Shown piece by piece: positions 4,247 through 46,896 of a DNA stretch of 64,000 bases. Each line of letters begins with the position of its first letter. Positions within the stretch are counted from its first letter, which is position 1. The notes beneath the pieces were generated by a model. That model was not told where the DNA came from. It did no database searches and saw only the letters and a program-made list of their open reading frames with translations. The DNA comes from Deltaproteobacteria bacterium (GTDB lineage Bacteria > Myxococcota_A > Bradymonadia > REDH01): assembly GCA_007693585.1 (NCBI GenBank), contig REDH01000072.1:77321-141320 (forward strand). Direction: 5' to 3'. The position numbers and the translations under genes are program-made.

Positions 4247-4311
4247 TGAACACCGCCGAACAACACCACGAACACGCCTCGATCCACCCTCCCCGTATGG
4301 AGACGCCTCCC

Positions 4312-7300
4312 ATGAGCCCACGCTGGACCCTCCCCGCACTCCTGGCCCTCGTCGCCCTGCTCGCAGGTTGCGCCGAGCAGGTCGGTGACATCGACCGAAC
4401 ACAGCCCAACCGACTCTCCAAGGACGCGCTCCAGGGCGAGTGGTACTACCGCCAGACCGTGGTCGACGTGAACGCCAGCGCCATGAGCACCTTCGTGGCC
4501 TTCCAGGCGGACATGTCCCGCGTGACCTTCGACATCGAGGAACAACTCCTCCTCGTGCGGCGGGTTGACGAGGACATCGTCGGCGCCGATCGCACCCCCA
4601 GCCGCGCCAACCCGCGCGGGACCGAAGGCGAAAGCGTCGTGGCCGCATTCCCCATCTCCGGTCACTTCGACATCATCCGCCAGTACAACAGCAGCACCGG
4701 CGAACAGACCAACGTCATCGTCGAAAACGCCTCCGACCGCCCGTGGTACGAGCGCGAGTACATGCGCATCGACTGGCGGCGAAACACCATCGACACCGAC
4801 TTCGACCCCATCATCCCCATGACCCAGCGGGCCAACGCCAGCATCGCCCCGCAGGATCACGACGGAACCTGGTTCGTCGAGTTCGACGACGAAGGAAACG
4901 CCACCTACATCGACGTGCTCCACACCTACATCATGACCCCGGACTGGCTCCAGTGCGTCCTCCGCTTCGGCTTCCCCCTTTACGGAGGCTGGTGCGGCAC
5001 CGAGACCGTCACCGTCCGCACCTCCATGATGCGCATCACCGAAGACAGCGACTACATCCCGCGCATCTACAGCGACCTCGACATGAACCGCTTCGGCTTC
5101 TTCCGCACCGAGCGACAGACCGATGACATCTGGCACGGCGCCCGCGACGCCGGCCGCGTCGAGCTCGCCAACCGCTGGAACATCTGGCTCCGCAGCCTCG
5201 ACGACGACGGCAACCCGCTCCCCTACGCCGAGCGCGGCGTCCGACCCATCGTCTTCTACGCCAGCTACCCCTTCCCCGAAGACCTCGTCGGACCCTCCTA
5301 CGAAGTCGCCGAACAGTGGAGCTTCGCCTTCCGACGAACCGTCGCCGGACTCCTGGGACACAACGACATCAGCCAGGTCCCCAGGATGATGTACTTCTGC
5401 CTCAACCCGGGCGGCGATGACCTCGAACCCAGCGAGGAGTTCGCCGACGAGGAACTCACGCGGATCGCCTACGACGTCTCCAACGAGGGCTACCGCGAAG
5501 GCTGGTGCCAGAGCCCCGGCACCATCAAGAACCACGGCGACCTCCGCTACAGCTTCTTCAACTGGATCGACCACCGACAGGCCGGACCCCTCGGCTACGG
5601 ACCGTCCAGCGCAGACCCGCTCACCGGCGAGATCGTCAACGCCAACGCAAACATGTACGGCCAGGCCGTCAACACCATCGCCCAGAACACCCTCAACCTG
5701 GTCCGCATCATCAACGGTACCCTCACCCCCGAGGACATCGGACTCGGACGCGTCCACCAACAGTACTTCGACGCCATCCGCGCTCGCGGAAACGCCGACC
5801 TCTTCTTCGGCCAGCGCAACAAGGACGGACAACTCCTGCAGACCGGCAACATCGAGCAGGCACGACTGCACCTGAACGAACGCGCCGATTACCTCGCCTC
5901 CGCACGAGACATGGTCGCCAACAGCGGCGCCTTCCTCTCCGTGGTCAACGAAGGCCTCCACCACCTCCAACTGCGCAACGAGCGGCAGCGGACCCGTCTC
6001 CCCGAACTGCGCGACACCACCATCGAACGCGCACTCATCACCCCCGAGCTCAAGCAGGGACTCTCCCTCGGACAGCTCGATGCCGGTGACGGCGTCCCCG
6101 ACGACATGATGGACATCATCTCCCCCATCCGCGCCCTCTCCCTCGACGCGTTCCAGCGCATCCACGACCGAAAGCACAGGGAGCTCCTCGCGCGCTCCAT
6201 CCACTTCGCCGAAGACTTCGACGGACGAATGCTCGCTTTCGCCCGACGCATGGCCTCCCTCGAACAGGAACTGATCGAGATCCACGGCGATGACCGCGAG
6301 ACCGTCGAGAACCTCCTGCGACGGTACATCCGCCGGCACATCTACCGCTCCGTCCAGGAACACGAGGTCGGACACACCATCGGACTCCGGCACAACTTCG
6401 AAGCCACCATGGACTCGATGAACTACTTCCCCTCCTACTGGGCGCTCCGCGAACAGCACACGTTCAACGAGGACTGCGACCAGGTCGGGTACCGCTCCTT
6501 CGACACCACCGGCCTCGCCGAAGGCCGGCCCGCCGGCGCCCGCTGCGGGGAAACCGCCGCCGAACGTGAGGCACGCCACGCCGAAGCGTTCACCAACCTC
6601 CAGGCCGGAGGCATCTGGGACTACTCCTACGCCTCCATCATGGACTACGGGCAGCTCATCAACGCCCTCGCCGGACTCGGCCTCTACGACTACGCCGCCA
6701 TCGCCTACGGATACGGCGACCTCGTCGAGGTCTGGAACCGTCCCAGCCGACCCTACCGCCTCGAGATCAACCAGCGACGCAACGCCGCCGGCAACTTCTC
6801 CGCCAGCGCCTCCGACATGAGCCGCAGCGGCCAGCGCGTCTTCGACCCCCGCGGCGAAGACGTCGCCCTCATCAATGACTTCAACAGCGAAGGACGGCTG
6901 CTCATCGAACGCGAACAGCGGCGCACCCCATGGACCTACTGGCACTACAGCGTCCTGCCCGTGATGTTCGACCAGGTGCGGAGCGCCCCCCGCGCCGAGG
7001 AACGAAACCGCGTCGAGTTCGCCGAGGAAGAGTTCGGCCTCTGGGGGCCGTCCTTCGACTTCTCCGGCGTGGAGGGCATGTGGGCCATGTATGACCGACA
7101 GCTCGTCCCCAGGGAGACCGCCGTCGCCGAGAACGCCATCCAGGTGCCCTACCGCTTCTGCTCCGACGAGTTCCGCGGTGCCTCCGCCTACTGCCGCCTC
7201 TGGGCCAACGGCGCCGACGAGTACGAAGTGTTCGTCAACATGCGCGACCAGTACGAGAACTACTACATGATCGAGCAGTTCCGCGCGGGCCGCGCCGGCT

Positions 7301-8526
7301 GGGGACTCAACCTTCTCCCCATCTACAACCGCCTGCTCGGACGCACCATGTACCCGGCACTCAACGCCTACCAGTACTTCCTCATCAACGCCTCCAGCCG
7401 CGGACCGGAGTGGTACAACGCCCCCTGGGGCGGGCAGCACGCCTTCAACGCCGCCATCGAGGGCATCAACTTCCTCGGCGATGTCATCACCACCCCCGCC
7501 CCCGGAACCTACGCCTGGGACGAGCGGGAGGGCACCTTCATGAACATCAGCGAGGACGTCGGCTTCACCGTCGACGAAAACGACGAGGAGTTCGGGTTCC
7601 TCGACCCGGACCAGTTCCTCGACATCCGCGTCGAGGACGGCGCGCGCTTCGGCGCCTCCCGGTTCCGCCGACTGCAGGACCCCGATCGGCCCGGCGAGGA
7701 CCCGGTCCGGGGATACTACGCCCACCTGCAGACCGAGATCATGTCCCACTTCTGGGCCAAGCTCGCCGCCATCACCGCGCTCACCTCGGGTGCCGTCGAC
7801 GTCATCGGCGCCGACACCAGCTCCGACGCATCCGCGTTCTTCATCCCCGCGTTTCTCATCTTCCCCGATGACATGACCCGATTCTTCGGCTCCATCATCG
7901 CGGAAGACTTCAGCAACGTCGGTCGTTGCGCGCGGCAGACCGCCGACGGATGGTCCATCAGCTCCATCGACCTCATCCGTACCGGAGCCGGCTGCAGCAC
8001 CGGACGACTGGTCAACCCCAACACCACGGTGTTCGGCAACCGGGACTTCAACATGCGGCTCTTCACCACCGTCTACGCCGCCTCGGAACTCAGCCAGAAC
8101 CTCGATCTGGACTGGATCAACCGATCCGCCATCTTCCTCGCCGGACGAGGAGAGCAGATCGACAGCTGCGCGTTCGGACCCGACGCCGATGACCCGAGCT
8201 GCAACGCCCAGGCCATCAGCTACACGGACCCACAGGGCTACACCTACGTCTCCGTCGCACCGCGGTTCCGCGCCGGGTCGACCAGCGTCATCGATCCCCT
8301 CGGCAGCCGCGAGGACTGGCACGCCGGCTGGCAGATGGTCCAGCGCGCCATCGACCTCGAGACCGAACTCCAGGAGATCCGCGCCGCCGAAGGCGAGTCT
8401 TCCGAGTTCTTCCGGATCCGCAACCGGCGAAACAGCCACATCGAGACCATGCGCTTCGCCCTCGAGACGAACCGCCACCTCGGCACCATGTGGAACCATC
8501 AGGATCAGTTCATCCGATTCGACTGA
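4312..8526 (+). CDS. Large (about 1,400 aa) secreted zinc metalloprotease lipoprotein. HEXXH zincin, reminiscent of the DUF4953-type zinc-dependent metalloprotease family.
   Basis: Lipoprotein signal MSPRWTLPALLALVALLAGC (lipobox LAGC). Zinc-binding motif HEVGHTIGLRHNFEA, with a downstream SIMDYGQ Met-turn-like segment. The ORF opens at 4246, but the signal peptide and an RBS favour 4312. Confidence 0.6.
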   Translation: MSPRWTLPALLALVALLAGCAEQVGDIDRTQPNRLSKDALQGEWYYRQTVVDVNASAMSTFVAFQADMSRVTFDIEEQLLLVRRVDEDIVGADRTPSRANPRGTEGESVVAAFPISGHFDIIRQYNSSTGEQTNVIVENASDRPWYEREYMRIDWRRNTIDTDFDPIIPMTQRANASIAPQDHDGTWFVEFDDEGNATYIDVLHTYIMTPDWLQCVLRFGFPLYGGWCGTETVTVRTSMMRITEDSDYIPRIYSDLDMNRFGFFRTERQTDDIWHGARDAGRVELANRWNIWLRSLDDDGNPLPYAERGVRPIVFYASYPFPEDLVGPSYEVAEQWSFAFRRTVAGLLGHNDISQVPRMMYFCLNPGGDDLEPSEEFADEELTRIAYDVSNEGYREGWCQSPGTIKNHGDLRYSFFNWIDHRQAGPLGYGPSSADPLTGEIVNANANMYGQAVNTIAQNTLNLVRIINGTLTPEDIGLGRVHQQYFDAIRARGNADLFFGQRNKDGQLLQTGNIEQARLHLNERADYLASARDMVANSGAFLSVVNEGLHHLQLRNERQRTRLPELRDTTIERALITPELKQGLSLGQLDAGDGVPDDMMDIISPIRALSLDAFQRIHDRKHRELLARSIHFAEDFDGRMLAFARRMASLEQELIEIHGDDRETVENLLRRYIRRHIYRSVQEHEVGHTIGLRHNFEATMDSMNYFPSYWALREQHTFNEDCDQVGYRSFDTTGLAEGRPAGARCGETAAEREARHAEAFTNLQAGGIWDYSYASIMDYGQLINALAGLGLYDYAAIAYGYGDLVEVWNRPSRPYRLEINQRRNAAGNFSASASDMSRSGQRVFDPRGEDVALINDFNSEGRLLIEREQRRTPWTYWHYSVLPVMFDQVRSAPRAEERNRVEFAEEEFGLWGPSFDFSGVEGMWAMYDRQLVPRETAVAENAIQVPYRFCSDEFRGASAYCRLWANGADEYEVFVNMRDQYENYYMIEQFRAGRAGWGLNLLPIYNRLLGRTMYPALNAYQYFLINASSRGPEWYNAPWGGQHAFNAAIEGINFLGDVITTPAPGTYAWDEREGTFMNISEDVGFTVDENDEEFGFLDPDQFLDIRVEDGARFGASRFRRLQDPDRPGEDPVRGYYAHLQTEIMSHFWAKLAAITALTSGAVDVIGADTSSDASAFFIPAFLIFPDDMTRFFGSIIAEDFSNVGRCARQTADGWSISSIDLIRTGAGCSTGRLVNPNTTVFGNRDFNMRLFTTVYAASELSQNLDLDWINRSAIFLAGRGEQIDSCAFGPDADDPSCNAQAISYTDPQGYTYVSVAPRFRAGSTSVIDPLGSREDWHAGWQMVQRAIDLETELQEIRAAEGESSEFFRIRNRRNSHIETMRFALETNRHLGTMWNHQDQFIRFD

Positions 8527-19790: not shown

Positions 19791-21026
19791 TCAGGTGTCC
19801 ACCACCTGTTCCAGTCCGAAACGCGCGAACGCCTCCCCGCCCCACCGCGCCTCGACATGCTGCAACGCATCCAGACCCAGCGTGTCCGCATGATCCAGCG
19901 CGCGCGACGACGGGACGAACCCGCCGTCGAACACCCGACCCCAGCCGCGCGAGGCCCAGCGCTCGAACAACGGCACCAGCTCCACCACCCCCTCGCCAAA
20001 ACGCCGACGCAGCGCAGCACCATCCACACCCGACACCGTCCGCACACCCGTCAGCAGTCGCTCCCCCAGATGCGTCGCCGCCGTCAGTCGCTCCTCCTCC
20101 GACGGCTCCGCCAGCTCCCCCCGCGACCACGCCTCCAGATACCGCCGCAACGAGCGGGTGTTCGCACGACGAACCGCCATCCCGCCGGACACCCGCAGCC
20201 CGTGCGCACCCACACCGACCGCAAGCACCTCGCGCCCCGACCAGTACCCCTCGTTGTGCCGCGAACGACCCCCCGCACGCGCGTGGCTGCTCACCTCGTA
20301 TCGCTCGAACCCCAGCTCCCCCAGACCCGCACGCTGCAACCGCTCGAGCGTCACCACCGCATCCTGCTCCGGAACAGACAGCATCCCGCGCACCCGACGC
20401 GCCTCGAACGACGTGCGAGGCTCCCACGTCAGCTCGTACGCCGACACATGATCGACCCCCTCGAGCGCTGCCAGCGCACGGAGATCCGCCTCCACCTCCG
20501 CCTCCCCCTGCCCCGGCACCCCGTGCATCAGATCCACCGAGACATGCGGGAATCCCGCCTCCAGCGCCAGCGCCACCGCGCGGAACGCACCCTCCGGAGA
20601 ATGCGCCCGACCCAGCGTGCGCAACACCGGGGCCGAGAAGGACTGCACCCCGAAACTCAGGCGGTTCACGCCCAACCCCCTCCACGCCTCCAGGCGCTCC
20701 CGCGTCACCCCCTCCGGATTGACCTCGAGCGTCACCTCCGGCGGAAGTCCCCACAGACGCGCCACGCACCCCACCACCCGACCGATCTGACCGACGCTCC
20801 ACAGACTCGGCGTCCCGCCGCCCAGATACAGCGTCCGAAGCGCCTGCCCCGCGTGCGCCCGACCCCGCCGCTCGATCTCCCCGACCACCGCGCCACCATA
20901 CGCCTCGTGAGGCACCCGCGACACCACCGCCACCGTGAAGTCGCAATACGGACAATGCCGCGCGCAGAACGGCACATGCACATACATCCCGAACGACGCC
21001 CCTCGCTCCAGCCGAAGCGGGATCAT
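19791..21026 (-). CDS. hemW: Radical SAM heme chaperone HemW (coproporphyrinogen III oxidase-like)
   Basis: MYVHVPFCARHCPYCDF (CxxxCxxC radical SAM motif) with the HemN-like remainder. Its ATG overlaps the upstream stop (ATGA at 21023-21026). Confidence 0.75.
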   Translation of the reverse strand: MIPLRLERGASFGMYVHVPFCARHCPYCDFTVAVVSRVPHEAYGGAVVGEIERRGRAHAGQALRTLYLGGGTPSLWSVGQIGRVVGCVARLWGLPPEVTLEVNPEGVTRERLEAWRGLGVNRLSFGVQSFSAPVLRTLGRAHSPEGAFRAVALALEAGFPHVSVDLMHGVPGQGEAEVEADLRALAALEGVDHVSAYELTWEPRTSFEARRVRGMLSVPEQDAVVTLERLQRAGLGELGFERYEVSSHARAGGRSRHNEGYWSGREVLAVGVGAHGLRVSGGMAVRRANTRSLRRYLEAWSRGELAEPSEEERLTAATHLGERLLTGVRTVSGVDGAALRRRFGEGVVELVPLFERWASRGWGRVFDGGFVPSSRALDHADTLGLDALQHVEARWGGEAFARFGLEQVVDT

Positions 21027-21493
21027 GGACGCACGTCCGTCTCCCACACCCGCTCCGACTCCTGAATCCGAAGCCTCGACGGCACCACCGCAGACGGCCT
21101 CCGCACCGCTGGCGCCTCCCCGAAGCCGTCCCACAGGAACTGGCCTCCAGCACGCGGCAGCGCCATCCGATCCCCGAACTGGCTCATCCGGGCGTCCACA
21201 CGCCCCCCCGACGGAACGTCCCCCGCACTGAACACGTACCGTTCGTCCGCGATCAGACGAACGTCGAACCAGTCCCGACCCCCCGCGTTGCGCACCGTGA
21301 AGTACACAACCTCGTTGGACGCCCGACCACTCTCCACCACCGCACCCAGCGGATTGCCCACTCCGCCGAACACCCCCTCCGACAACCCCCAGAACCCGCT
21401 GAACACGAAGAGCACGGCCGAGACCGCCAGCACCGCGATCCGCTGCCGGGCAAGAGGCCCCTCCAACCACTCTCGTGCTCCCTGCCTCCGCAT
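21023..21493 (-). CDS. Hypothetical membrane-anchored protein (about 157 aa)
   Basis: MRRQGAREWLEGPLARQRIAVLAVSAVLFVFSGFWGL has an N-terminal TM segment. Translationally coupled to hemW through the ATGA overlap. The remainder of the 997-aa minus-strand ORF upstream is antisense to the gene at 21713..23965 and is judged spurious. Confidence 0.45.
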   Translation of the reverse strand: MRRQGAREWLEGPLARQRIAVLAVSAVLFVFSGFWGLSEGVFGGVGNPLGAVVESGRASNEVVYFTVRNAGGRDWFDVRLIADERYVFSAGDVPSGGRVDARMSQFGDRMALPRAGGQFLWDGFGEAPAVRRPSAVVPSRLRIQESERVWETDVRP

Positions 21494-21712: not shown

Positions 21713-23965
21713 ATGAAGTTCGTCTGCGACGCCTGCGGCGCGCGTTACAAGATCGATGACTCCCGTCTCAAGCCGGGCCGAGCGCTCCGCATCCGCTGCA
21801 AGCGCTGCACACACGTCATCGAACTGAAGCCGCCCGAAGCCGCCGTGGGAGACACGCTCCCCCACCGCCGAGCCACCGGCCGGCTCACCGCCTTCCGCAA
21901 GGCAGACACCGCCGCCGCACCCGCCTCCGAACTGCCGAAGGTCTGGCACTTCGCCCGAAACGGAGAGACCTTCGGGCCCTACGCCGAACAGGAACTCGTC
22001 ACCCGCTTCGAACGCGGAGACATCGGCGACGAAGTGTACCTCTGGAAAGCCGGCTTCGACGGCTGGAAACCCGCCGCCGAGCTCCCCACCTTCGCCAAGG
22101 CCATCCGCAAGGCCGTCGCTGCCAAGGCACGCTCCGGACCGAGCACACAGCGCCTCTCCGCAGCAGACGTCAAGGCGGCCCTCGCCCCCGACACCGGCGA
22201 CGACGCCGAAGAAAAGACCCGCGTTCACAACCTCGCCGACCTCAAGGCCGGCATCGACGACACCCTCGAAGCCCGACGCACCTCCGCCGAGCAGAAGCGC
22301 CGCGCCGAATCCGAACGAAAGCAGCGCGAACAGGCCGCGCGCGCCGAAGCCGAGCAGAAGCGCCGCGCCGAAACCGAGCGAAGGCAGCGCGAACAGGCCG
22401 CGCACGCCGAAGCCGAGCGCGCACGCGAGATCGAACGCCAGGCCCTCGAAGCCGAGGAACGCGCCCGGGAAGCCGCACGCCGCGAAGCCGAGGAAGCCGC
22501 CCGGGCACGGGCCGAAGCCGAAGCCGAAGCCGCCGAGCGCGACCAGCGCGCCCGACAGGCCGCCACCGAGCGCCGCGAAGCGGACAAGCAGCGTCGAATG
22601 AAGGACCTGCTCAAGGCACCCCGGCCCGCCACGCGCTCCAGCCTTCCCGCCGTCGGGAAGCCGCTCCCGAAACCCGGACCGCCGCTCCCCACCCGTCCCG
22701 CTACCCCGACGACCCCCAAGGCCCCCCCGGAATCCTCCGCGGACGAAGCCGTCACCCCCGATGCGCGGGACGATGACTCCCCCACCCGGGAGCCGCACAC
22801 CACGACCCCCACCGGCGAAGACACCGCAGAGGCCGGCACCCCGGCGAAGGGCATCCCCCTGACCCCCGAAGGACCACCCGAGGAGCCTCTCGACGACCTC
22901 GACGCGGCAGGCACCCCGCCCCGCGGAACCAACATCGGCGCGGAAGACGAAGGACCCGAGGACGCCGCCGCGACCCCGACGACCGAAGCCGCCCGACCCC
23001 AGGTCCGAACCACCGGCGCCATCCGCGCCGAAGCCCTGCTCGCCGACTTCGAGGAACTCGACGCCGACGACCCGTCCGCAGGCATCGAGATGTGGCCCGA
23101 TGCCGACGAGGTCCCCCCACCACCGCCCCCACCGCCCCGGCGCAGAAGGACCCTCGTGTGGGTCGGCGCCGGCACCGTCGCCGTCGCCTTCCTCCTCATG
23201 CTCCTGATCCCGCAGCGCGGAGACGGACCCCGAACGGCCTCCGACGAAGAAGGCACCCTTTCGGTGGAAACCGCACAGGACCGCCAGCGCCGGCTCCAGA
23301 ACGTCGAGGCCGCCACACGACGAGCCGAGCGCACCATCCACACCGCATGGACCCGGGCCGACGGCCGCGTGACCGCCGAAGTCGCCCGCCGCGACGCCGC
23401 CGCCCGACAACGCACCCGCCCCGGGACTCCCGGCGCCGGAACCGCCGAGCCCACCGAGGAACGCCGCTCCCTCGCCGACCAGATCCGCGCCGCCGGAGAC
23501 GGCTCCGCGGACAGCGGCCCGACCGTGCGACGCGACGGCCTCGGACGCGCGCCACTGCCCACAGGCGACCGCCTCGGAAGCCTCTCCGGCGCCGGAACCT
23601 CCGGACTCTCCTCCGGAAGCCTCAGCGGCCCCGGAGCAGACGGCCCCACACGCACCGGGCTCTCCTCCACCGCAAGCCGAGGACCCAGCGCCGAACACTT
23701 CCGACCCGGGTTCGACCGCTTCGTCAGCCCCGCCATCAACCGCTGCAACCAGCGCCACATGGGCGAGGTCGGCGAACTGCTCACAGGTCGTGTCGTCCTG
23801 CAGTTTCGCATCGAACCCGACGGTCGCGTCAGCCGGCTCACCACATCCGGACCCGCCAGCAACACCCCCTTCCTCCGCTGCATGACCAGCGAGAGCACCC
23901 GCTGGCGATTCGAGCCGTTCCAGGGCGAGACCGCCACCATCGAACGCACCTACGTCCTGCGCTGA
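21713..23965 (+). CDS. GltJ/AgmX-like gliding-motility-complex protein. Order of domains: N-terminal MJ0042-type zinc ribbon, GYF-like (DUF4339) domain, coiled-coil and Pro-rich linker, single TM, periplasmic region, C-terminal TonB-C-like (AgmX/PglI C-terminal) domain.
   Basis: MKFVCDACGARYKIDDSRLKPGRALRIRCKRCTHVIEL is the zinc ribbon. WHFARNGETFGPYAEQELVTRFERGDIGDEVYLWKAGFDGWKPAAELPTF is GYF-like. Tandem 21-aa AEQKRRAExERxQREQAA repeats. TM segment TLVWVGAGTVAVAFLLMLLIP. C-terminus GRVVLQFRIEPDGRVSRL...TRWRFEPF is TonB-C-like. The architecture matches M. xanthus GltJ (AgmX) from memory; it was not searched. Confidence 0.55.
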   Translation: MKFVCDACGARYKIDDSRLKPGRALRIRCKRCTHVIELKPPEAAVGDTLPHRRATGRLTAFRKADTAAAPASELPKVWHFARNGETFGPYAEQELVTRFERGDIGDEVYLWKAGFDGWKPAAELPTFAKAIRKAVAAKARSGPSTQRLSAADVKAALAPDTGDDAEEKTRVHNLADLKAGIDDTLEARRTSAEQKRRAESERKQREQAARAEAEQKRRAETERRQREQAAHAEAERAREIERQALEAEERAREAARREAEEAARARAEAEAEAAERDQRARQAATERREADKQRRMKDLLKAPRPATRSSLPAVGKPLPKPGPPLPTRPATPTTPKAPPESSADEAVTPDARDDDSPTREPHTTTPTGEDTAEAGTPAKGIPLTPEGPPEEPLDDLDAAGTPPRGTNIGAEDEGPEDAAATPTTEAARPQVRTTGAIRAEALLADFEELDADDPSAGIEMWPDADEVPPPPPPPPRRRRTLVWVGAGTVAVAFLLMLLIPQRGDGPRTASDEEGTLSVETAQDRQRRLQNVEAATRRAERTIHTAWTRADGRVTAEVARRDAAARQRTRPGTPGAGTAEPTEERRSLADQIRAAGDGSADSGPTVRRDGLGRAPLPTGDRLGSLSGAGTSGLSSGSLSGPGADGPTRTGLSSTASRGPSAEHFRPGFDRFVSPAINRCNQRHMGEVGELLTGRVVLQFRIEPDGRVSRLTTSGPASNTPFLRCMTSESTRWRFEPFQGETATIERTYVLR

Positions 23966-24105
23966 CGACGCGACGGCCACAGCCCGCACGCACCACCACC
24001 CGGGCCCATGGGACACTCCGACGCAGAGGACGAAACTTGCCCTCCAGCCAGCACCGTGCCAGTGTCGGGCGGCTGAACTGCGTCCCCGCTCGTCGGCCCG
24101 TCCGA

Positions 24106-25338
24106 ATGCTCAAGAGATTCCTGAAAGCCCTGGGGCGAAGCGATCCACAGCCCCAGCAGGAGGGCCCCACATCCGGGGAAGCCCTGCTCGACGCCCTGCG
24201 CGAACCGCTGGCCAGCCGCCTCCGGGATTCCGAGCAGTCTCCCGACCACGCCCTCGCGGACCTGCTCGTGGCCATGGCCGAGAGCGACATCCCCGACGAT
24301 GCGACCGCCGAGTCGAGGCGCCTCTACGGACGCAGCCTGCTGCCCCTCCTCCTCGACAATGACGCAAGACCCCCCGGGCTCCAGCTCCGGGACGAAGACC
24401 TCGACCCCGCACGCGCTCTCCTGCGCTCCTTCTTCTTCCGCGAAGGAGACATGCAGGAAAAGGCCTCGACCCTGCTCAAGTTCATCGAGAAGCGCTTCGC
24501 CGCCGAACACTTCGGGCAGGCCGAGATCCTCCTCGAACTCTTCGACAGCGAGCCGGCCACCCGGCGACACAACGAGCTCAACCTCTTCTACGAATCCATG
24601 CTCGTGCGCACCAATGGCACACGACGCTCACCACCTGGCCCCGACACCCTCCGCGACTGGCAACAGATGGCCGAGCGCGGTGCACCGCTCCCGGAACTCC
24701 TCCGCTTCCTCCACCAACAGGCCGGCATCCGGTTCCACATCCGACGACGCAACCCCGACGAGACCCGCGCCTGGAACGAAGCACTCCCCGATCGCATCGA
24801 ACACCACGCGCGCTCCACCTTCCTCGAACGCGTCCCTCCCGCACGATGGAGACCCGCACCCGACTCCCTCGACGACATCCGCACCCTCCTCGAGAATGCC
24901 TGCGGACCGGACGACTTCCAGCGCCAGGTCGAACACCTCACCCGCTCCGCATACTTCATCTCCCGCACCGTCGGACGGACCGGATTCGAACCACTCCTCG
25001 TCCGCTACGTCTCCTGGATCCGGGAGACCTTCACCTCCCCCGCCATCGCCGTGCTGCCCAGCCTCCACCTCTCCGCCCTCGACGAGAACCTGCTCTTCGG
25101 CGACATCGTCCGCTCCATCGTCGCCGAAAGACTCTCGTCGACCACCCGTCCCGAACGGAAGTGCTCCCCCGACAACATCCCCGGTGCACTGACCGCCACC
25201 CGGAACGCCATCGCCGACCTCGCCATCGACGTCCTCCCCGAAGGCGACTACGATCTCGCCGGACTCGTGCTCGACCACGCCATCGGGTACACCCGGCAGG
25301 CCGACACGAGGCACGTCCGCCTCCACAGGCTGCTCTAG
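24106..25338 (+). CDS. Hypothetical cytoplasmic protein (411 aa), lying between the GltJ-like and giant TPR genes
   Basis: In-frame ATG at 24106 (MLKRFLKALGR...). The preceding 1 kb of the same ORF is Arg-rich antisense-like sequence overlapping the gene at 21713..23965 and is rejected. No recognisable motifs. Confidence 0.4.
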   Translation: MLKRFLKALGRSDPQPQQEGPTSGEALLDALREPLASRLRDSEQSPDHALADLLVAMAESDIPDDATAESRRLYGRSLLPLLLDNDARPPGLQLRDEDLDPARALLRSFFFREGDMQEKASTLLKFIEKRFAAEHFGQAEILLELFDSEPATRRHNELNLFYESMLVRTNGTRRSPPGPDTLRDWQQMAERGAPLPELLRFLHQQAGIRFHIRRRNPDETRAWNEALPDRIEHHARSTFLERVPPARWRPAPDSLDDIRTLLENACGPDDFQRQVEHLTRSAYFISRTVGRTGFEPLLVRYVSWIRETFTSPAIAVLPSLHLSALDENLLFGDIVRSIVAERLSSTTRPERKCSPDNIPGALTATRNAIADLAIDVLPEGDYDLAGLVLDHAIGYTRQADTRHVRLHRLL

Positions 25339-25361
25339 CCCCGCCCACTGCCCTCCCCACC

Positions 25362-28300
25362 ATGCCCAACGCCACGGAGGACGGCGCACGGCCACCCGCC
25401 GATGCGCTGAAACTGTCCATCGACTTCCTCTTCGGACGAGGCTTCCTCACCGTCCGCCAGCAGCGCCTCGCCCACTGGGGAACGCTCGACGAACTCCGCA
25501 TGGAAGTCCCCGACCTGCGCTTCCCCTTCGACGTACAGGGCGGGCTGCACCGCTTCCGGCAGGTCCGCCACCACGTCCACCGGCTCCGGTACACCCTCTC
25601 CGAAAACGAGCTCGCCCGAACCCTCGACGCCGCCGCCGATGACATCTCCGGCTTCCACGCCGTCCAGCTCCGCCTCGCCCAGGGATCCCTGGTGCTGTGC
25701 GCCCAGGTCTCCCTCCTCTCCGCACGCGGAGCCATCGCCTGCCGCCTCGCTCCGGCCCCCGCGCTCCTCGACGACCCCCTCACCCTCCAGCTCGTCCCCG
25801 TCGAGTACACCACCTTCGGCGACCTGCCCCTCCCCGCCCCGCTCCTGCTCTCCGAGCTCCTCGGCCGACTCCTCCACCACGCCAGACTCCAGCACCCCAT
25901 CCCCGACTGGGCCCCCCGACTGCACGGCGACGTCCTCCAGCTCCGCCCCAGCCCCATGGTGCTCGCCGGACTCTTCCTCCCCCTGGGCTGGAAGATCCCC
26001 GCCACCGAACGACTCACCGCCGAGACCATCGACATCCGGCCCGGCGCCATTCACATCCTCGCCGCCGGCCGAGACGGCCCGCACCCGAGCCCCCACGAAC
26101 GCCACGACGTCCGCGACGCACGCTCCGGACGCAGCGCCGCCCTCGCCCTCGCCGGACTCGAAGCCCGAGCCGGACTCGAAGCCACCGACCAGGCCCTCTT
26201 CCGCGGAGACCTGCAGAACGCACTCGATGCCTGCAGACCCATCGCCACCAGCAGCGCCGCCCCCGACGTCGCCGTACACCGACTCCTCGACCTCCTCCTC
26301 GCCGCCGGCACCCCCGAGGCCACCGCCGAAGCCTCCCGCATCGCCGGCGATCGCGCCGACCGCGACCCCGAAGACCGGATCGCCCTCCAGACCCTCGCTC
26401 GCCTGCACCCGGACGACGCCTCCATCACCGACCGACTCCTCGAAGCACTCCGCGCCGCCAGCATGACCCCGGAGCTCATCCTCGGCGCCGTCGCCACCGC
26501 CGAAAGCGCCATGCACCGCGACCACGAGGACGCAGGACACCGTATCGCCAGCGCGCTCCGACTCGCGCCGCGACACCCCGAAGCGCTCCGGCTGCGCATC
26601 GACCACGCCCGACGAACCGGCGACCTCACCTCCCTCGAGGACACCCTGCGACGACGTTCCAGCGTCGCCCCCACCCTCCCCGAACGCATCGACCACCACC
26701 TCGAACTCGCCCGCCTCGCGCTCCGACGCAGAGGAGACGCCGCCGAAGCGCGCGCCTGGCTCGAACGAGCACGCTCCCTCTCCCCCGACACCGCCGACAT
26801 CTACACCGAGCTCGCCCACGCCTTCCTCCAGGAAGGACGCCCCGCCGACGCCGTCCGCGCCCTCGACACCGCCGCCACCCGGTACGCCGACGCCCACGAC
26901 CCCGCCGCCGCCGCACTCGCCCGCCGCCGAGCCGCCACCACCTGGCACCAGCAGCTCGACCAGCCCGACGCCGCACTCGCCGAGCTCCAGCGCGCCTGGA
27001 CCCTGCACCCGGACCCCGAAACCGCCATCGAACTCGTCGACCTCGCCATCGCCGCCCGACGACCCGATGACGCACTCGCCCCCCTGCAGACCGCCCTCCA
27101 CACCGCCACCGCACAACCCGTCCCCCCGGACACCCTCGCCGATCTCACCGAACGCGCCGCCAGACTCGACGAGGCCAGAGGCCGAATCGACGAGGCCATC
27201 TCCCGACGCAGGGACCTCCTGCACCTCCGCCCCGCCGACCGCGCCAACCGCAGCGCCCTCGAACGCGCACTCGTCGACGCCGGTCGAGCCGACGAATGGG
27301 TCGCCCTGCACGAAGAACTCCTCGATCACTGCGACCCCGACGAAATCCCCACCCTCCACGCCTCCCTCGCCCGCACCCTCCAGGAAACCCTCGACCGCCC
27401 CCTGCGCGCCGCACACCACTGGCGCCTGGTGCTCACCGCCCAGCCCGACCACCACGAAGCCCTCCATCGCCTCCGAGCCATCCACGCGGACCACCAACTC
27501 TGGCTCGAGCTCGCGGACGCCCTCCAGGCCGTCATCGCGGAGCACCCGGAACACCGCGCCGCACCCACCCTCCGCGCCGTCGCCGCCGAAGCCGCGTCCG
27601 CAGGCGGCGACGACACGCTCGCCATCGACCTCGCCCGAGCCGCGATCGCCCAGCACCCGGAAGCCTCCGCGCCCTGGCTCGCCGCAGCGTCGATCCTCCC
27701 CGACGAAGAGGCCTGGCACGCCGCCGAGCAGTTCGCCGACCGCACCGACGACCTCCCTCGCGCAGCCACCCTCCTGCGCACACTCGGCGACCGCGCATTC
27801 ACCTCCAGCGACGGCATGCGCCGCGCCGTCCGACTCTACCGCCGCGCTCTCCTCCTCGTGAACGACGAGGACACCCGACAACGCCTGCGTCGCGCCGCGG
27901 AACACTGCGGCATGGACCCCGACCGCGTCCTCCCCCCGACCGCCACGGCCCCCCCGCGCGCACAGGCGAACTCCCCGGCCCACGACAGGACTCCACCGGC
28001 TCCCGCCCGCGACCCGAGCTCCGCACCCCCACCCGCACGGCAGCCACCGGCACAGCAGCCGCCCGACGACCGAGCTCCCACACAGCACCCATCCGCGCCG
28101 CACGCTTTACCTCCGCAGACGCTCGCGAACTCCCCGGCCCCCAACAGGACTCCACCGGAACCGGCCGGCGACGACGAGAGCCCTGCGGCACCGGCCGGCG
28201 GGGCCCCAGGGCCACGCCTCGTGGACACCCCACCCGGAGGCCTCGACACCGACCGCCCCGTGGACGGCGCGCCCCCATCCACGCAGGCGCGAAGAATCGA

Positions 28301-30158
28301 AGGGCTCCGCGCCGAGCTCGAGGTCGCCCGCCACGCCGAAAGCCACGGGGAAGTCGTCCGCGTGCTGGAGGAACTCACGGGCCTCGTTCACGAGGACGGC
28401 GAACGCGCACGACTGTGCGCCGAGCTCGGGAGCACCCTCTATCATGATCTGGAAGAGTCCGAGCGGGCGCGACACTGGCTCGAGGAAGCGCAGCGGATCG
28501 ACCCGGACGGCGAGGGCCAGCGCTTCGAAGTCCTCACCGCCCTCGAAGCCATCTACGAGGACGTGGACGCCCCGGACGCCCTCCTGGAGGTCTACCGCCG
28601 CAAGCTCGAGGGAGCCGCCGACCCCGCGATGCGCGACGTCTTCCGCCTGCTGATGGCCACGGTGCTGTTCGAACGGCTGCACCGCCCGCGCGAGGCGCTC
28701 GCCCTCATCGACGAGAGCCTGCGGGACAGCGCCGCCAACATCCCCGCCCTCCGCCTGAAGGCCGAGATTCACGAGGACCAGGGGGATCCGTCGAGCGCGG
28801 TCCGAACGCTGCAGCACATCCTCGATCGCCCGGAACTCGATCCGTTCGAACGACAGGAGGTGCTGCGAAGCCTTGGCCGACTCGAGTGGAGGGAGCTGGG
28901 GGACCACGAGCGGGCTGCCAGTCGGTTCGAGGAGCTGCTCGCGCAGATCCCCGGGGACACGGACTGTCTGTCCGCGCTCAAGCAGATCCATGGCGCACGG
29001 GGTGCGTGGGACGACTGCGCGCGGGTGCTCTGGCGCGAGCTCGGCCTGCTCATCGGCCGCCTCGATGCATTCGAGGATGCCGGCGACGTGCTCGCCCTGC
29101 CCGAGTCGGACGTCCCGGCGCTGCTGCGCGGGACCTTCGCCCGGATTCTCGCGGAAGCCGCCGAGGTGCTGGCCAACGACAGCAACCGGGAGGAGCTGGC
29201 CGCGAAGCTCCTCGACCGGGCGGGCCAGCACGGGTCCAGCGAGCCTGCCGTGCTCGAGGCGCGCATCCGCGTCGGGCAGCGCCTCGACGACCACGCCGGC
29301 GTCGCACGCGCCGCCGAGCAACTCGCCGAACTGCTGCTCCTGAGCGAGGAGCGCCAGCAGCTTCAGGCGCTGGCCGCGGAGGCCTGGGAGCGCGCCGGGT
29401 TCGCCAGCCGGGCCGCCGCGCTCCGCAGCGCGGTCGCGTCCGCCGAGAGGGAGGGGAGTCGCCTGTCCCCCCATCCCGCCACTGTGTCCGGGCCGGTGGA
29501 GCGACCGCCCGTGGACGGGAAACACGGGGAGGACGCGCTGCGGGATCCGCAGATCGAAGCCGAGACGGCACGGAACGACCTTCGTGGGGATGACGAGGAC
29601 GTGGACGAGCTGGACGGATCGACGCCGGCCCCTGCACCGCAGGCGGGCACGCTCCACACCGCGACGGACGGAACCGACGGTTCGACCGCCTCGGTGGAGT
29701 CGTTCGACCCGGCGCGCGCGGGCACCGCGGAGCGATTGAGTCATCTGGATCGCCTGGCACGGTCGGAGCGGTATGCGGAGGCCCTGAGTGCGATCGAGTC
29801 ATGGCTTCCGATGGCGCGGGATCCGGTCCACCGCCGGGAGCTCCTGCTTCGGAAGGGGCGACTGCTGATCGATCGCAGCGGAACGGGACGGGACGCGATC
29901 CTCGTGCTCAAGGGCGCGCTGATCCTCGACGAGAATGCTGCCGATACGCGGTTCGAGCTGATGCGCGCGCACGCGCGGTCCGGAGAGTTCCGGCTTGCGA
30001 TGGAGCAACTGCGGGAGCTGTCGACGATTCTCGGGTCGGACCTGTTGTCGCTGGACGGGCTGGCGCCGGAGATCGATCGGCTGCGGGCGCTCGGAGAGCC
30101 CGCGGACGTGTCGCGGCTCGATCAGTGGGTGCGGGACGTGCGCCCATCGGGCGAGTGA
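25362..30158 (+). CDS. Very large (about 1,600 aa) cytoplasmic TPR-like helical-repeat protein with a central Pro-rich low-complexity linker. Possibly GltI/AgmK-like.
   Basis: No signal peptide (MPNATEDGARPPADALKL...). Dozens of Ala/Leu/Arg-rich helical repeat units typical of TPR-like solenoids. Pro-rich segment at about 27900-28280 with a 34-bp near-identical direct repeat (27966 and 28125). Confidence 0.5.
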   Translation: MPNATEDGARPPADALKLSIDFLFGRGFLTVRQQRLAHWGTLDELRMEVPDLRFPFDVQGGLHRFRQVRHHVHRLRYTLSENELARTLDAAADDISGFHAVQLRLAQGSLVLCAQVSLLSARGAIACRLAPAPALLDDPLTLQLVPVEYTTFGDLPLPAPLLLSELLGRLLHHARLQHPIPDWAPRLHGDVLQLRPSPMVLAGLFLPLGWKIPATERLTAETIDIRPGAIHILAAGRDGPHPSPHERHDVRDARSGRSAALALAGLEARAGLEATDQALFRGDLQNALDACRPIATSSAAPDVAVHRLLDLLLAAGTPEATAEASRIAGDRADRDPEDRIALQTLARLHPDDASITDRLLEALRAASMTPELILGAVATAESAMHRDHEDAGHRIASALRLAPRHPEALRLRIDHARRTGDLTSLEDTLRRRSSVAPTLPERIDHHLELARLALRRRGDAAEARAWLERARSLSPDTADIYTELAHAFLQEGRPADAVRALDTAATRYADAHDPAAAALARRRAATTWHQQLDQPDAALAELQRAWTLHPDPETAIELVDLAIAARRPDDALAPLQTALHTATAQPVPPDTLADLTERAARLDEARGRIDEAISRRRDLLHLRPADRANRSALERALVDAGRADEWVALHEELLDHCDPDEIPTLHASLARTLQETLDRPLRAAHHWRLVLTAQPDHHEALHRLRAIHADHQLWLELADALQAVIAEHPEHRAAPTLRAVAAEAASAGGDDTLAIDLARAAIAQHPEASAPWLAAASILPDEEAWHAAEQFADRTDDLPRAATLLRTLGDRAFTSSDGMRRAVRLYRRALLLVNDEDTRQRLRRAAEHCGMDPDRVLPPTATAPPRAQANSPAHDRTPPAPARDPSSAPPPARQPPAQQPPDDRAPTQHPSAPHALPPQTLANSPAPNRTPPEPAGDDESPAAPAGGAPGPRLVDTPPGGLDTDRPVDGAPPSTQARRIEGLRAELEVARHAESHGEVVRVLEELTGLVHEDGERARLCAELGSTLYHDLEESERARHWLEEAQRIDPDGEGQRFEVLTALEAIYEDVDAPDALLEVYRRKLEGAADPAMRDVFRLLMATVLFERLHRPREALALIDESLRDSAANIPALRLKAEIHEDQGDPSSAVRTLQHILDRPELDPFERQEVLRSLGRLEWRELGDHERAASRFEELLAQIPGDTDCLSALKQIHGARGAWDDCARVLWRELGLLIGRLDAFEDAGDVLALPESDVPALLRGTFARILAEAAEVLANDSNREELAAKLLDRAGQHGSSEPAVLEARIRVGQRLDDHAGVARAAEQLAELLLLSEERQQLQALAAEAWERAGFASRAAALRSAVASAEREGSRLSPHPATVSGPVERPPVDGKHGEDALRDPQIEAETARNDLRGDDEDVDELDGSTPAPAPQAGTLHTATDGTDGSTASVESFDPARAGTAERLSHLDRLARSERYAEALSAIESWLPMARDPVHRRELLLRKGRLLIDRSGTGRDAILVLKGALILDENAADTRFELMRAHARSGEFRLAMEQLRELSTILGSDLLSLDGLAPEIDRLRALGEPADVSRLDQWVRDVRPSGE

Positions 30159-42993: not shown

Positions 42994-45228
42994 ATGTCCT
43001 ACGTCGTCCTCGCGCGCAAGTGGCGCCCCCAGAGCTTCGAAGACCTGACGGGCCAGGAGCACGTCGCCCGTACGCTCCGCAATGCCATCGAGCGGGATCG
43101 GGTTCCCCACGCACTCCTGTTCACGGGTGCGCGGGGAGTCGGCAAGACGTCGAGCGCGCGCATCCTCGCGATGGCGCTCAACTGCGAACGGGGACGGAGC
43201 CCGATCCCGTGCGGCGAGTGCTCGTCCTGCGTCGAGATCCAGCAGGGTCGCAGTACCGACGTGCTGGAGATCGACGGTGCATCGAACCGGGGCATCAACG
43301 AGATCCGCGAGCTGCGCGACGGCGTCCGCTACGCGCCGCAGCGGGATCGGTCCAAGATCTACATCATCGACGAAGTCCACATGCTGACGACGGAGGCCTT
43401 CAACGCCCTCCTGAAGACGCTCGAAGAGCCCCCGCCCCACGTGGTCTTCATCTTCGCCACGACCGAGGCGCAGAAGATCCCCGTCACCATTCTCAGCCGC
43501 TGCCAGCGCTTCGACTTTCGGCGCATCGGGCACCGGGACATCGTGGACCGGCTCGCGCACATCGTGCGGAGCGAGGGGATCGCGGTGGACGAGGACGTTC
43601 TCGGACTCATCGCCCGCCAGGCAGCCGGCGGAATGCGGGATGCGCTGAGCCTGCTCGATCAGGTGATCGCCTTCTCGGGAGACGGGATCGACATCGACAC
43701 GGTGAGCGAGATCCTGGGCGCGGCGGACCGCCGAAGACTGTTCGATCTGAGCGAGGCGGTGCTGCGGCGCGACCGCGAAGCGGCCCTCGACGTGCTGGAC
43801 GTCGTGATGCAGCACGGTACCGACCCGATCCACTTCACGGCGGAGTGGGTCAGTCACCTGCGCGACCTCAATGTGGTCGCTGCGGCACCGGACGCCCGTC
43901 ACCTCACGACCCTGACGGACAGCGAGCATGACGACGCTCTCGCCCAGGCGTCCGCGACGCACCCGAGCGTGCTCCATCGCGCGTTCGAGTGCATGGTGGG
44001 CGAGGCCGAGACGATCTCGCGCGCCGCCTGGCCGCGGCTCGTCCTCGAGATGGCCGTTCTCCGCCTCTGCGACATCGAGAGCGTTCACCGGGTGGAGGAG
44101 CTGATCAGCCGCCTCGAGCATCTGGCGGCCGGACATCGGCTTCCATCGGGCGCCGCGGCGGCTCCGGTCGAGACGGAGCCGCGGGACGGAGGGGGCGTCG
44201 GGCGAAAGGGTCCCCGTGGCCGTGCCTCGGCGGCCGGTGCCGCCCGACGAGAGCCGGGCGGGGAGACGGAGGAGGAGCCCTCCCCTGCGGATGCCCCCGT
44301 TGCTGCCCCGGCGGCCGATCCGCCTTCGCCGGCGGCCACGCACGTGCCCGCCGAAGCCCCCCCGGCCGACGCGGCGGCCTTGCCCGTGCACGGGGCCGTG
44401 GGAGGGAGAGCGGAGGAGCAGGTGTCGCCTGGTTCGGTGGACGCGTCCGGCCCGGGCGACGGCGGGGTCGGCGCGACAGCGCCGGAACGAATCATCGCCG
44501 ACGTCCGGGCGGAGGTCTCCGCGGGTCCTGTGGTTGCCACTTTCGCACCGGACGGTTCGTCGACGCCGTCAGGGCCGGACTGCGGAGAGGCGGAGGGAGC
44601 GGCGAACGCATCCGCCGCGGCGGGAAGCGTGTCGGGACCGCAGCCCTCCCCTGCCGCGCCGACGGAGCGCGACGCCGCGAGCCGCCGCGCCGCGGAGGAT
44701 GATGTGGACGAGCCGCTGCCGGAGGCAGGCATGGGCGCGGAGGCGTCGCCGGTGCGGGGCGAGGCCCGAATCACCGCGGGCCGAGAGGTGCCGGAGGGGG
44801 AGGCTCCCCGCGCGGCCAGCCTTGCGCTATGGCGGGAGGTCGTCGCGCTGTGGGATGAGCAGGGCTCTCCGGTCGGTCGGCTGCTGGCGCGCGGCTGGCT
44901 GCTGGACGCGGGTGGGTCGACGATCCGTCTGGCCCTCCCGGGGGCGCTGCTGGAGCAGCTTCGCCCGGGGGTTCTCGACGCGGTGGCTTCGGAGCTCGGA
45001 AGCCGGACGGGACGGGCGGAGCTGGGTATCGGCCTGGTCGAGGTGGAGGAGCTGACTTCGGACGAGCTCGACCAGGGGCTCCAGCTCCTGCGGCTGGAGG
45101 AGGAGGAGCGCGAGGCGCAGCGAGCGGCGATTCGGGAACGGATGGCGGGTCATCCAGCCGTTCGCGAGATTCTGGACACGTGGCCAGCCGCGCGGGCGAG
45201 CTACACGATCAACGAGGACGAGGCCTGA
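42994..45228 (+). CDS. dnaX: DNA polymerase III subunits gamma/tau
   Basis: [24 protein letters not shown]...[18 protein letters not shown] (Walker A) ...[10 protein letters not shown] (zinc module) ...IFIFATTE. Long Pro/Ala-rich tau linker. The internal start is preferred over the ORF start at 42907. Confidence 0.9.
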
Positions 45229-45275
45229 GCAGGCCTCTGCTCCCGAACGGGAGCACAACGTCAGGAGGAGCATCG

Positions 45276-45599
45276 ATGGCGACGAGCAACAAGACCCTGG
45301 GTGGTATCGTCAAGCAGGCGCAGCGGATGAACCAGCAGATCGCGCGCATCACGGACGAGATGTCGGATCGGGAGGTGGAAGCCACGGCGGGCGGTGGTGC
45401 GGTCCTGGCGGTGGTCAATGGCCGCCAGCAGCTGGTTCGGCTGGACATCGATCCGGGCCTGCTGTCGCCGGACGAGGCGGAGACGTTGCGTGAGCTGGTG
45501 ATCACGGCGGTGAACCTGGCGATGGAGAACGCCAAGGAGATGATGAAGACGGAGGTGGACAAGGTGACGGGGGGCCTGCACCTGCCTGGGCTGTACTGA
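45276..45599 (+). CDS. ybaB: Nucleoid-associated protein YbaB/EbfC
   Basis: MATSNKTLGGIVKQAQRMNQQIARITDEM...AGGGAVLAVVNGRQQLVRLDIDP is the YbaB family pattern. RBS AGGAGG. Confidence 0.85.
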   Translation: MATSNKTLGGIVKQAQRMNQQIARITDEMSDREVEATAGGGAVLAVVNGRQQLVRLDIDPGLLSPDEAETLRELVITAVNLAMENAKEMMKTEVDKVTGGLHLPGLY

Positions 45600-45600
45600 G

Positions 45601-46212: not shown

Positions 46213-46340
46213 TCGGCGCGAATGTTGCCGGAGCGCCTCCGGCTGTGGTAGGCGGGAAGGGCTGGTTCGGAATGCCGCTCCGTCGTGCCTGTGCACGGGT
46301 GTCGCGATTCCGCTGACAGGCGTCTCATGCGTGAGGATCC

Positions 46341-46826: not shown

Positions 46827-46896
46827 GCGGTCAGGCGTGCGGGTGCCACCCCACCGAGCCTGACACATTCCCCTTCAGGGTGCAGCCGAGGCCGGA

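Follow-up and report, generated by a model that had tools for sequence, protein, structure and literature searches.

GltJ (AgmX, MXAN_4862) of Myxococcus xanthus has a four-cysteine zinc ribbon (ZnR), a GYF_2 domain and a long disordered cytoplasmic region, followed by a single transmembrane (TM) helix, a disordered periplasmic spacer and a two-cysteine C-terminal domain of the AgmX/PglI (TonB-C-like) type. It is encoded in an operon with a large cytoplasmic tetratricopeptide repeat (TPR) protein, GltI (AgmK, MXAN_4863), in a Myxococcota genome that has mglBA. These features recur, with a C-terminal domain that scores just under the curated cut-off for its type, in a set of three adjacent genes, here called P1, P2 and P3, in a 64,000-nucleotide stretch of a Deltaproteobacteria bacterium (Bradymonadia; assembly GCA_007693585.1, contig REDH01000072.1, positions 77,321 to 141,320 of the forward strand), referred to below as the window. 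A preliminary description took the trio for a Glt focal-adhesion sub-cluster. In our judgement there is an even chance that it is instead a conserved operon of Bradymonadia-like Myxococcota, encoding a GltJ-type trans-envelope adaptor with a cytoplasmic platform of its own, which would be a sister or variant of GltJ/GltI rather than part of the Agl-Glt machine of M. xanthus.

In GltJ, which is required for gliding, MglA-GTP binds a 95-residue linker (L86-T107), AglZ is held through its proline-rich sequence by the GYF domain, and the zinc ribbon interacts first with the linker and then with MglB (PMC11135422). The preliminary description, in which the zinc ribbon and GYF domain bind MglA-GTP, was inaccurate on this point. 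In around 44% of bacterial GYF proteins a zinc ribbon stands next to the GYF domain, and outside Myxococcales ZnR-GYF proteins show no correlation with MglAB or AglZ and have been proposed to be versatile switches (Attia et al., PMC11135422). Like P1, these generic ZnR-linker-GYF proteins have an N-terminal zinc ribbon, a variable linker, a GYF domain and a membrane-associated C-terminal module, and the proposal is that they are switch modules whose ligands are specific to each lineage (Attia et al. 2024, figs S3-S4, PMC11135422). P1 differs from them in having an AgmX/PglI-type periplasmic domain and a conserved TPR partner, and because of these it is closer to GltJ than to the generic class.

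Other known proteins share parts of this design. GltG (PglI), TonB and TolA are, like P1, bitopic, with a disordered proline-rich periplasmic spacer and a small TonB-C-like C-terminal domain. GltG also has the two-cysteine and W-x-F pattern of P1, but it carries FHA domains and not a ZnR-GYF pair. TonB and TolA, in contrast to P1, are almost without a cytoplasmic part and have ExbBD or TolQR as their partners; motor genes of this kind do not stand near P1, and the MotA/TolQ/ExbB family has no match in the window. For P3, a comparison by description only can be made with SgmX (MXAN_5766), a TPR effector of MglA-GTP in the type IV pilus system. Both are cytoplasmic, have about 1000 amino acids (aa) or more, and combine several TPR blocks with a C-terminal TPR-like module that stands apart from them, and both occur in bacteria that use MglA and pilus-driven motility. 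SgmX is described as consisting solely of 14 TPRs (PMC7668184), whereas P3 has a non-TPR N-terminal domain, which by description sets the two apart.

The GltJ-like membrane protein P1

The three genes are as follows, and each product is identical to an NCBI record from a 181,782-bp contig of a metagenome-assembled genome labelled "Deltaproteobacteria bacterium".

21713..23965, plus strand: P1, 750-aa bitopic inner-membrane protein of GltJ-like architecture (from open reading frame and domains; TVR02608.1)
24106..25338, plus strand: P2, 410-aa cytoplasmic protein of an unnamed family (TVR02547.1)
25362..30158, plus strand: P3, 1598-aa cytoplasmic TPR scaffold (TVR02548.1)

All three are real genes, and lie where the preliminary description had placed them; their open reading frames (ORFs) give the NCBI products, and coding on the plus strand is backed by codon-position GC. 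The layout of P1 runs from a cytoplasmic zinc ribbon through a short linker, a GYF domain and a long disordered spacer to the TM helix, and from there through a disordered periplasmic spacer to the C-terminal domain. Its parts are:

21713..21823, plus strand: zinc ribbon, aa 1-37, with Cys5, 8, 29 and 32 (Zn_ribbon_4, TIGR02098, PDB 7zok)
21824..21943, plus strand: ZnR-GYF linker, aa 38-77, short and basic, without the MglA-binding motif of GltJ (motif profile and regular-expression searches)
21944..22093, plus strand: GYF_2 domain, aa 78-127 (GYF_2 profile, PDB 7z3c)
22094..23149, plus strand: cytoplasmic low-complexity spacer, aa 128-479 (translation, family alignment)
23150..23212, plus strand: TM helix, aa 480-500 (hydropathy)
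23732..23959, plus strand: periplasmic C-terminal domain, aa 674-749, two-cysteine, AgmX/PglI-type, TonB-C-like (NF033768)

The two N-terminal domains are clear. P1 scores 38.2 bits on Zn_ribbon_4 (cut-off 30.3), 33.9 bits on MJ0042_CXXC (TIGR02098, cut-off 20.9) and 53.7 bits on GYF_2 (cut-off 25.8). The four zinc-ribbon cysteines are invariant (alignment A3), as are, in comparison with GltJ, the GYF residues W78, G88, P89, G102, W111, F115 and W118. The best PDB matches are the zinc ribbon (7zok, E-value 3.3e-7) and the GYF domain (7z3c, 6.3e-5) of GltJ itself, and the order of zinc ribbon, GYF domain, TM helix and C-terminal domain is that of GltJ, as had been proposed. The spacer that follows has a short conserved motif after the GYF domain, a charged helix rich in E, R and K, and proline-rich and acidic segments; in the family alignment its length and sequence vary among homologues, short motifs excepted. 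The charged segment (aa ~185-300, window 22265-22612) has the near-repeat AEQKRRAE[ST]ER[KR]QREQAA and resembles a single alpha-helix spacer; homologues do not keep it and have in its place other low-complexity spacers, whose lengths differ widely. The sole hydropathy peak of P1 is at aa 480-500 (Kyte-Doolittle >1.6), with RRRR on its N-terminal side, and by the positive-inside rule the N-terminus would lie in the cytoplasm.

The C-terminal domain is less clear-cut. It matches the "AgmX/PglI C-terminal domain" model NF033768 with an E-value of 1.3e-8 and 34.9 bits (cut-off 40), and three homologues reach 29-36 bits (6e-9 to 7e-7), so that all four family members tested fall under the cut-off; true GltG, as a control, scores 113 bits. 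On TonB_C (PF03544) the match is weak (17.6 bits, E-value 0.005, cut-off 24.6), and on TIGR01352 P1 has no match (GltG: 35.5 bits). The domain also shows the two-cysteine and W-x-F pattern common to the C-terminal domains of GltG and GltJ, a distant likeness. It had been called TonB-C-like in the preliminary description, and these scores suggest that it is nearer to the AgmX/PglI type than to TonB. The domain search proposed there thus returned GYF_2 above its cut-off and the AgmX/PglI domain below the curated one.

Direct comparison with GltJ gives a mixed result. The zinc ribbons align at 45% identity (8e-12) and the GYF domains at 28% (1.6e-7), with no further alignment beyond these two domains. 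On the NCBI GltJ equivalog model (NF033761) P1 obtains 42.2 bits against a cut-off of 450, and three homologues obtain 44-60 bits, in all cases, P1 included, through the zinc ribbon only. As controls, a 407-aa fragment of true GltJ reaches 525.7 bits on this model, and true GltG reaches 1078 bits on its own.

The linker points the same way. The core of the MglA-binding motif, EIGAVFDQVL, was generalised as [DE][IVL]G.[AV]F[DE] and searched for both as a motif profile and as a regular expression. It is present in all five GltJ orthologues extracted and in 23 of 28 ZnR+GYF proteins from a homology search, where the linkers are 78-197 aa long. The same searches did not find it in P1, in its seven homologues, in their closest metagenomic relatives, or in P0008 or P0110. 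The linker of P1 is only ~40 aa long (20-67 aa across the family and its closest metagenomic relatives). In contrast to GltJ, then, P1 has a shorter linker without the motif that binds MglA-GTP and the zinc ribbon, and it falls short of both the equivalog and the C-domain cut-offs. Gene order differs as well: gltJ is preceded by gltI, whereas P1 is followed by P2 and P3, and no gltD-H adjoin it. By its sequence, P1 is GltJ-like in build and a distant homologue of GltJ that belongs to a separate subfamily.

It is worth describing how the Glt proteins for these comparisons were obtained. A profile search with a chimeric alignment of N- and C-terminal parts returned mostly partial or frameshifted GltJ and no full-length protein, and GltJ and GltI were therefore recovered through contigs. 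The comparison set includes GltJ N-termini and GltI from Myxococcus contigs, complete Myxococcaceae G1 clusters from metagenomes, and two GltJ-type loci from other lineages. In two ENA contigs with GltJ-type genes (L030 and L031), frameshifts have apparently broken gltI and gltJ into several ORFs, and the C-terminal domain of GltJ has an ORF to itself. Many protein entries labelled as partial GltJ seem to stem from frameshift splitting of this kind.

P2, P3 and the conservation of the trio

P2 has no match in Pfam or NCBIfam, which agrees with the earlier view that it lacks recognisable motifs; its length is 410 aa and not 411 as first given. With HMMER, 102 relatives were detected among 1.84 billion cluster representatives, and for 94 the E-value was 1e-10 or lower. 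In most of them the length is ~400-420 aa and the alignment runs end to end over residues 1-409, and L143, F146, N156, E157, R249 and G380 are invariant in the family. Neither P2 nor P3 has a signal peptide or a TM segment. An AlphaFold2 model of P2, based on a 43-sequence alignment, has a predicted local distance difference test score (pLDDT) of 93.4 and a predicted TM-score of 0.90, and is mostly helical with a small sheet. Compared with the whole PDB by Foldseek, this model found no match at E<=0.001, and the best TM-score was ~0.17. On the model, P2 is a conserved and well-folded family whose predicted fold has no relative among solved structures.

P2 had been suggested to be an undescribed Glt component. 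That suggestion was not supported: no P2 counterpart was found in the G1 cluster or beside gltJ in four lineages. The MXAN_4864/65 region between gltH and gltI was considered as a possible counterpart and rejected, the P2 profile being blank in all six frames of the region. Some P2 homologues (P0034, P0047, P0052, P0054 and P0084) are longer, with 500-657 aa; they keep the conserved N-terminal helix (MLKRFLKF...), and between it and the core there is an acidic, disordered insert of 150-250 aa that contains a PPPPP motif. They were considered as possible domain fusions, which was ruled out, the extra region being a disordered insert with no Pfam match.

P3 has no hydrophobic segment, and its only profile matches are to TPR families. 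It is organised as follows:

25362..26351, plus strand: family-specific N-terminal non-TPR domain, aa 1-330 (conserved in 6 homologues)
26352..27281, plus strand: TPR block 1, aa 331-640 (TPR_19, TPR_11, TPR_2; conserved)
27879..28310, plus strand: proline-rich variable linker, aa 840-983, up to 38% proline (proline scan)
28359..29411, plus strand: TPR block 2, aa 1000-1350 (TPR_8, TPR_7; best-conserved part of the family)
29709..30155, plus strand: C-terminal module, aa 1450-1598, weakly TPR-like (TPR_19, E-value 3e-4; 47-51% identity across homologues)

The homologues of P3 have 1030-1375 aa and the same organisation, with an N-terminal non-TPR domain, two TPR blocks and a C-terminal module, and with variable linkers between them. 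Every homologue contains a linker with at least 20% proline, and the proline-rich linker of P3 is a candidate ligand of the GYF domain. A single-sequence AlphaFold2 model of the N-terminal domain failed (pLDDT 42.8). Within this domain, aa 41-202 give a weak LmeA-like match (PF11209, E-value 6.7e-4, 20 bits; gathering score 27). An LmeA-like identity is uncorroborated, in that one of seven family members matches and none of the six homologues does.

The preliminary description was right that a large cytoplasmic TPR protein follows P1, and it saw in this protein an analogue of GltI; here the resemblance stops at the level of the repeats. Like P3, GltI is a large cytoplasmic TPR protein without a signal peptide that is encoded together with a ZnR-GYF membrane protein, and the TPR blocks of the two align at repeat level. 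With blastp, P3 against GltI gives at best 49 bits in scattered registers. With hhalign, the TPR blocks of P3 align to full-length GltI (a 4106-aa ORF of locus L023) with probabilities of 92-97%, again in several registers, while the N-terminal domain (0.2%) and the C-terminal module (1.7%) of P3 have no counterpart in that protein. As a rough control, the same blocks against the TPR-like part of the neighbouring Slt give ~2%; GltI, however, has some hundred repeats. GltI and P3 match identical generic TPR models, and no curated GltI model exists. The two also differ in size, at 3822 aa for GltI in the literature (PMC11761067) and up to 4106 aa in our set, against 1598 aa. GltI consists of TPR arrays and a helical C-terminal domain and begins directly with TPR-like repeats, in contrast to the non-TPR N-terminal domain, proline-rich linker and C-terminal module of P3; and gltI precedes gltJ, whereas P3 comes after P1 and is separated from it by P2. 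On these alignments P3 is not demonstrable as GltI, and the likeness appears to be that of generic TPRs. In sum, a search for similarity to GltJ and GltI finds it to be significant for the zinc ribbon and GYF domain of P1, with the equivalog model failed and with generic TPR similarity only for P3.

The trio is conserved as a unit in a number of genomes. A homology search with full-length P1 returned no relatives, low-complexity words having probably swamped the candidate list, and aa 1-135 as the sole query gave one match. A genome scan with P2 alone gave no match. Loci were found by a pattern scan of one genome per species, with a pattern from a 15-sequence P2 alignment (the 43-sequence alignment was too diverse). 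This gave 19 loci, all from metagenome-assembled genomes whose labels are Bradymonadia, Myxococcota, Myxococcales or delta/proteobacteria. In 10 of the 19 the gene immediately before P2 encodes a P1 homologue, and in eight of these ten a P3 homologue comes after P2. The gene order dnaJ-like<dnaK<grpE<hemW, P1>P2>P3, <slt is found in the window and ten species-level loci, and in some loci the gaps or overlaps between P1, P2 and P3 are a few bases. It is on this synteny, shared with genomes labelled Bradymonadia, that the analysis based its placement of the present genome. The P1 homologues, examined in seven loci, are 576-924 aa long and keep the zinc ribbon, GYF domain, TM helix and C-terminal domain, with variable regions between them. 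The nine more distant P2 homologues are in unrelated contexts (dnaE, kinases, a STAND NTPase, adenosine deaminase) without P1 or P3, and because of this the P2 family is wider than the trio and not strictly tied to it.

mglBA and the rest of the window

The mglBA genes begin 16.2 kb past the stop codon of P3, which confirms the earlier statement that they are near.

46356-46826: mglB, 169 bits against the M. xanthus MglB chain
46897-47487: mglA, 283 bits against the M. xanthus MglA chain

They come directly after dnaX-ybaB-recR on the same strand (window 42994-47487), and their conservation with M. xanthus is far above that of P1 with GltJ. The 16 kb between the trio and mglBA contain housekeeping genes. 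Other Glt and Agl genes were searched for more widely. GltD, E, F, G and H have no tblastn match in the window or in 20 related loci, and neither AglRQS nor any further Glt family turned up in the 64-kb window or in ~300 kb of related loci. A 10-kb left extension (L022) has a kinase, a ParA-like ATPase and a PEGA-TPR protein, and nothing Glt-like. In the Myxococcaceae loci L020, L023 and L029 the order is gltD-E-F-G-H-I-J; the window differs, with hemW, P1-P2-P3 and slt. The one bradymonabacterial motility study checked here for these terms describes pilus-driven S-motility only, with no mention of Agl or Glt (PMC11509652). Literature searches for Glt genes in Bradymonadales found none, nor did the searchable literature yield a paper that pairs Bradymonas with GltD.

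The rest of the window is housekeeping: PBP1A, thiL, dnaJK-grpE, hemW, slt, gap-pgk-tpi, secG, serS, tadA, dnaX-ybaB-recR, pckA and others. With a GC content of ~70%, spurious mirror ORFs are abundant. One such high-GC artefact is a 997-aa antisense ORF that mirrors P1 (21023-24016, minus strand) and has no Pfam match. The exception is the last 156 codons, which make up a separate small gene that is real and accounts for the 3' end of the antisense ORF. The small gene, which is conserved, lies between hemW and P1 (window 21023-21493, minus strand); its ATG is at 21493, with GGAGGGAGAG before it, and at the other end its stop codon overlaps the probable start of hemW (21026). The product has an N-terminal TM helix and a beta-rich remainder without a Pfam match, and tblastx finds it at the same position in five related loci (1e-13 to 4e-16). 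The hemW ORF has 602 aa, with a 200-aa N-terminal extension that looks non-coding. Two adjoining genes of unknown function (window 3155-8526, plus strand) encode proteins of 363 and 1409 aa. The smaller has no family match, and the only match of the larger is a short Met-zincin motif (DUF4953, aa 682-704).

Strand asymmetry is extreme throughout the window (1-64000), with switches near 28,843, 46,845, 53,703 and 58,344. The plus-strand GC skew at third codon positions is between -0.13 and -0.63 in every gene from 1 to 28 kb, regardless of gene strand, and flips inside P3 (-0.63 for aa 1-900, 0.00 for aa 901-1598). After P3 it is +0.04 to +0.42 up to mglB, with a further flip between mglB and mglA. 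At 28.8 kb the polarity resembles that of an origin, but a search for the DnaA box (TTATCCACA, at most one mismatch) found none in the window. Syntenic relatives are without such skew. The flip could have marked P3 as a chimeric gene, which was ruled out, as P3 is collinear with all of its homologues. A scan for promoters and terminators was uninformative.

Rival readings and a possible role

The reading of the preliminary description is that P1 and P3 are true orthologues of GltJ and GltI in an MglA-GTP-controlled Agl-Glt gliding machine, with P2 as an undescribed Glt component. P1 has the architecture of GltJ, its best PDB matches are GltJ domains and its C-terminal domain is of the AgmX/PglI type; the large cytoplasmic TPR protein in the operon recalls the adjacency of gltI and gltJ in Myxococcus, its TPR blocks align to those of GltI, and mglBA is present. 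Against this, P1 has 42 bits where the equivalog cut-off is 450, the MglA-binding motif is absent from eight of eight P1-family members, P3 has N- and C-terminal domains that GltI lacks, the size differs and the gene order is reversed with P2 inserted, and GltI and P3 match one and the same set of generic TPR models. Four Glt loci are without P2, no GltD-H homologue was found in the window or the related loci, and the motility study cited above describes S-motility only. We regard orthology as improbable, and with the GltJ model failed and no other Glt or Agl family in the window or related loci, the idea of a Glt focal-adhesion sub-cluster is not borne out. At the other end, the three genes might be neighbours by chance with unrelated functions, or some of the ORFs might be high-GC artefacts, as the GC content and the many mirror ORFs of the window would allow. 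All three products, however, belong to conserved families and have full-length homologues, the antisense ORF is without any family match, codon-position GC favours the plus strand, and chance is contradicted by the synteny, with P1 and P2 adjacent in ten loci and P3 next in eight; this reading is very improbable indeed.

A more serious competitor is that P1 belongs to the widespread class of ZnR-GYF "receptor-like" switches unrelated to MglA or motility, and that the operon has another envelope function, such as transmembrane signalling or the organisation of the cell wall and envelope, with P2 and P3 as lineage-specific effectors. The frequent pairing of GYF domains with zinc ribbons and the lack of correlation with MglAB or AglZ outside Myxococcales (PMC11135422) fit this well, as do a P1 without the MglA motif, constant neighbours that are lytic transglycosylase and chaperone genes, and the presence of P2 in unrelated contexts elsewhere. 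It fits less well that P1 ends in a domain specifically of the AgmX/PglI type, a type seen in gliding proteins, that a large cytoplasmic TPR protein accompanies P1 as GltI accompanies GltJ, and that the hosts are Myxococcota with highly conserved MglA and MglB; the housekeeping neighbours are on other strands and in other operons and need not be functionally linked. We consider this reading unlikely. The reading favoured here, that of a sister or variant of GltJ/GltI, has weaknesses too: the scores of the P1 family on both curated models are below cut-off, the linker motif is missing, P2 is not strictly tied to the trio, the housekeeping neighbours offer no functional hint, and neither a GltD-like periplasmic partner nor an AglRQS-like motor was found nearby. 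Every step of the mechanism outlined below, moreover, is drawn by analogy with GltJ.

If the adaptor works as GltJ does, the periplasmic C-terminal domain of P1 would dock on a periplasmic or outer-membrane partner. The GYF domain would capture a proline-rich segment, either the linker of P3 or the proline-rich spacer of P1 itself, and this capture would tether the TPR scaffold, together with P2, to the inner membrane. The zinc ribbon may have a regulatory or autoinhibitory role, and may still be able to recruit MglB. MglA-GTP would not be able to bind P1 in the manner of GltJ because the linker motif is missing; any control by MglA would have to come via another site, for example a TPR block of P3, as in SgmX (PMC7668184). 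Candidate processes for the trio are surface motility, the polarity of a pilus or predation apparatus, and envelope organisation. A more specific and quite tentative form of the favoured reading is that the trio is an undescribed envelope-spanning module of Bradymonadia-like predators, a sister or ancestral form of the GltJ/GltI platform without the MglA switch and with a new TPR scaffold and a P2 of new fold, which might organise a surface-motility, pilus or prey-contact apparatus.

If the trio is ordinary envelope housekeeping, then a zinc ribbon, a GYF domain, a TonB-C-like domain and a neighbouring TPR protein are together insufficient to call a Glt cluster. P2, as a conserved family with a confidently predicted fold and no solved relative, is in itself a reasonable target for structural and functional work. 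To our knowledge, GltJ is the only characterised link between a focal-adhesion motor and a cytoplasmic G-protein switch. If the trio is a sister or ancestral form of the GltJ/GltI platform, the GltJ-type adaptor would have originated before Myxococcia and Polyangia split from Bradymonadia, and the MglA-binding linker would be a later insertion. The P1 family, which is conserved, lacks the MglA-binding linker motif and has other partners, is a natural comparison that can help in telling the ancestral tether parts of GltJ from the regulatory switch that it may have gained later.

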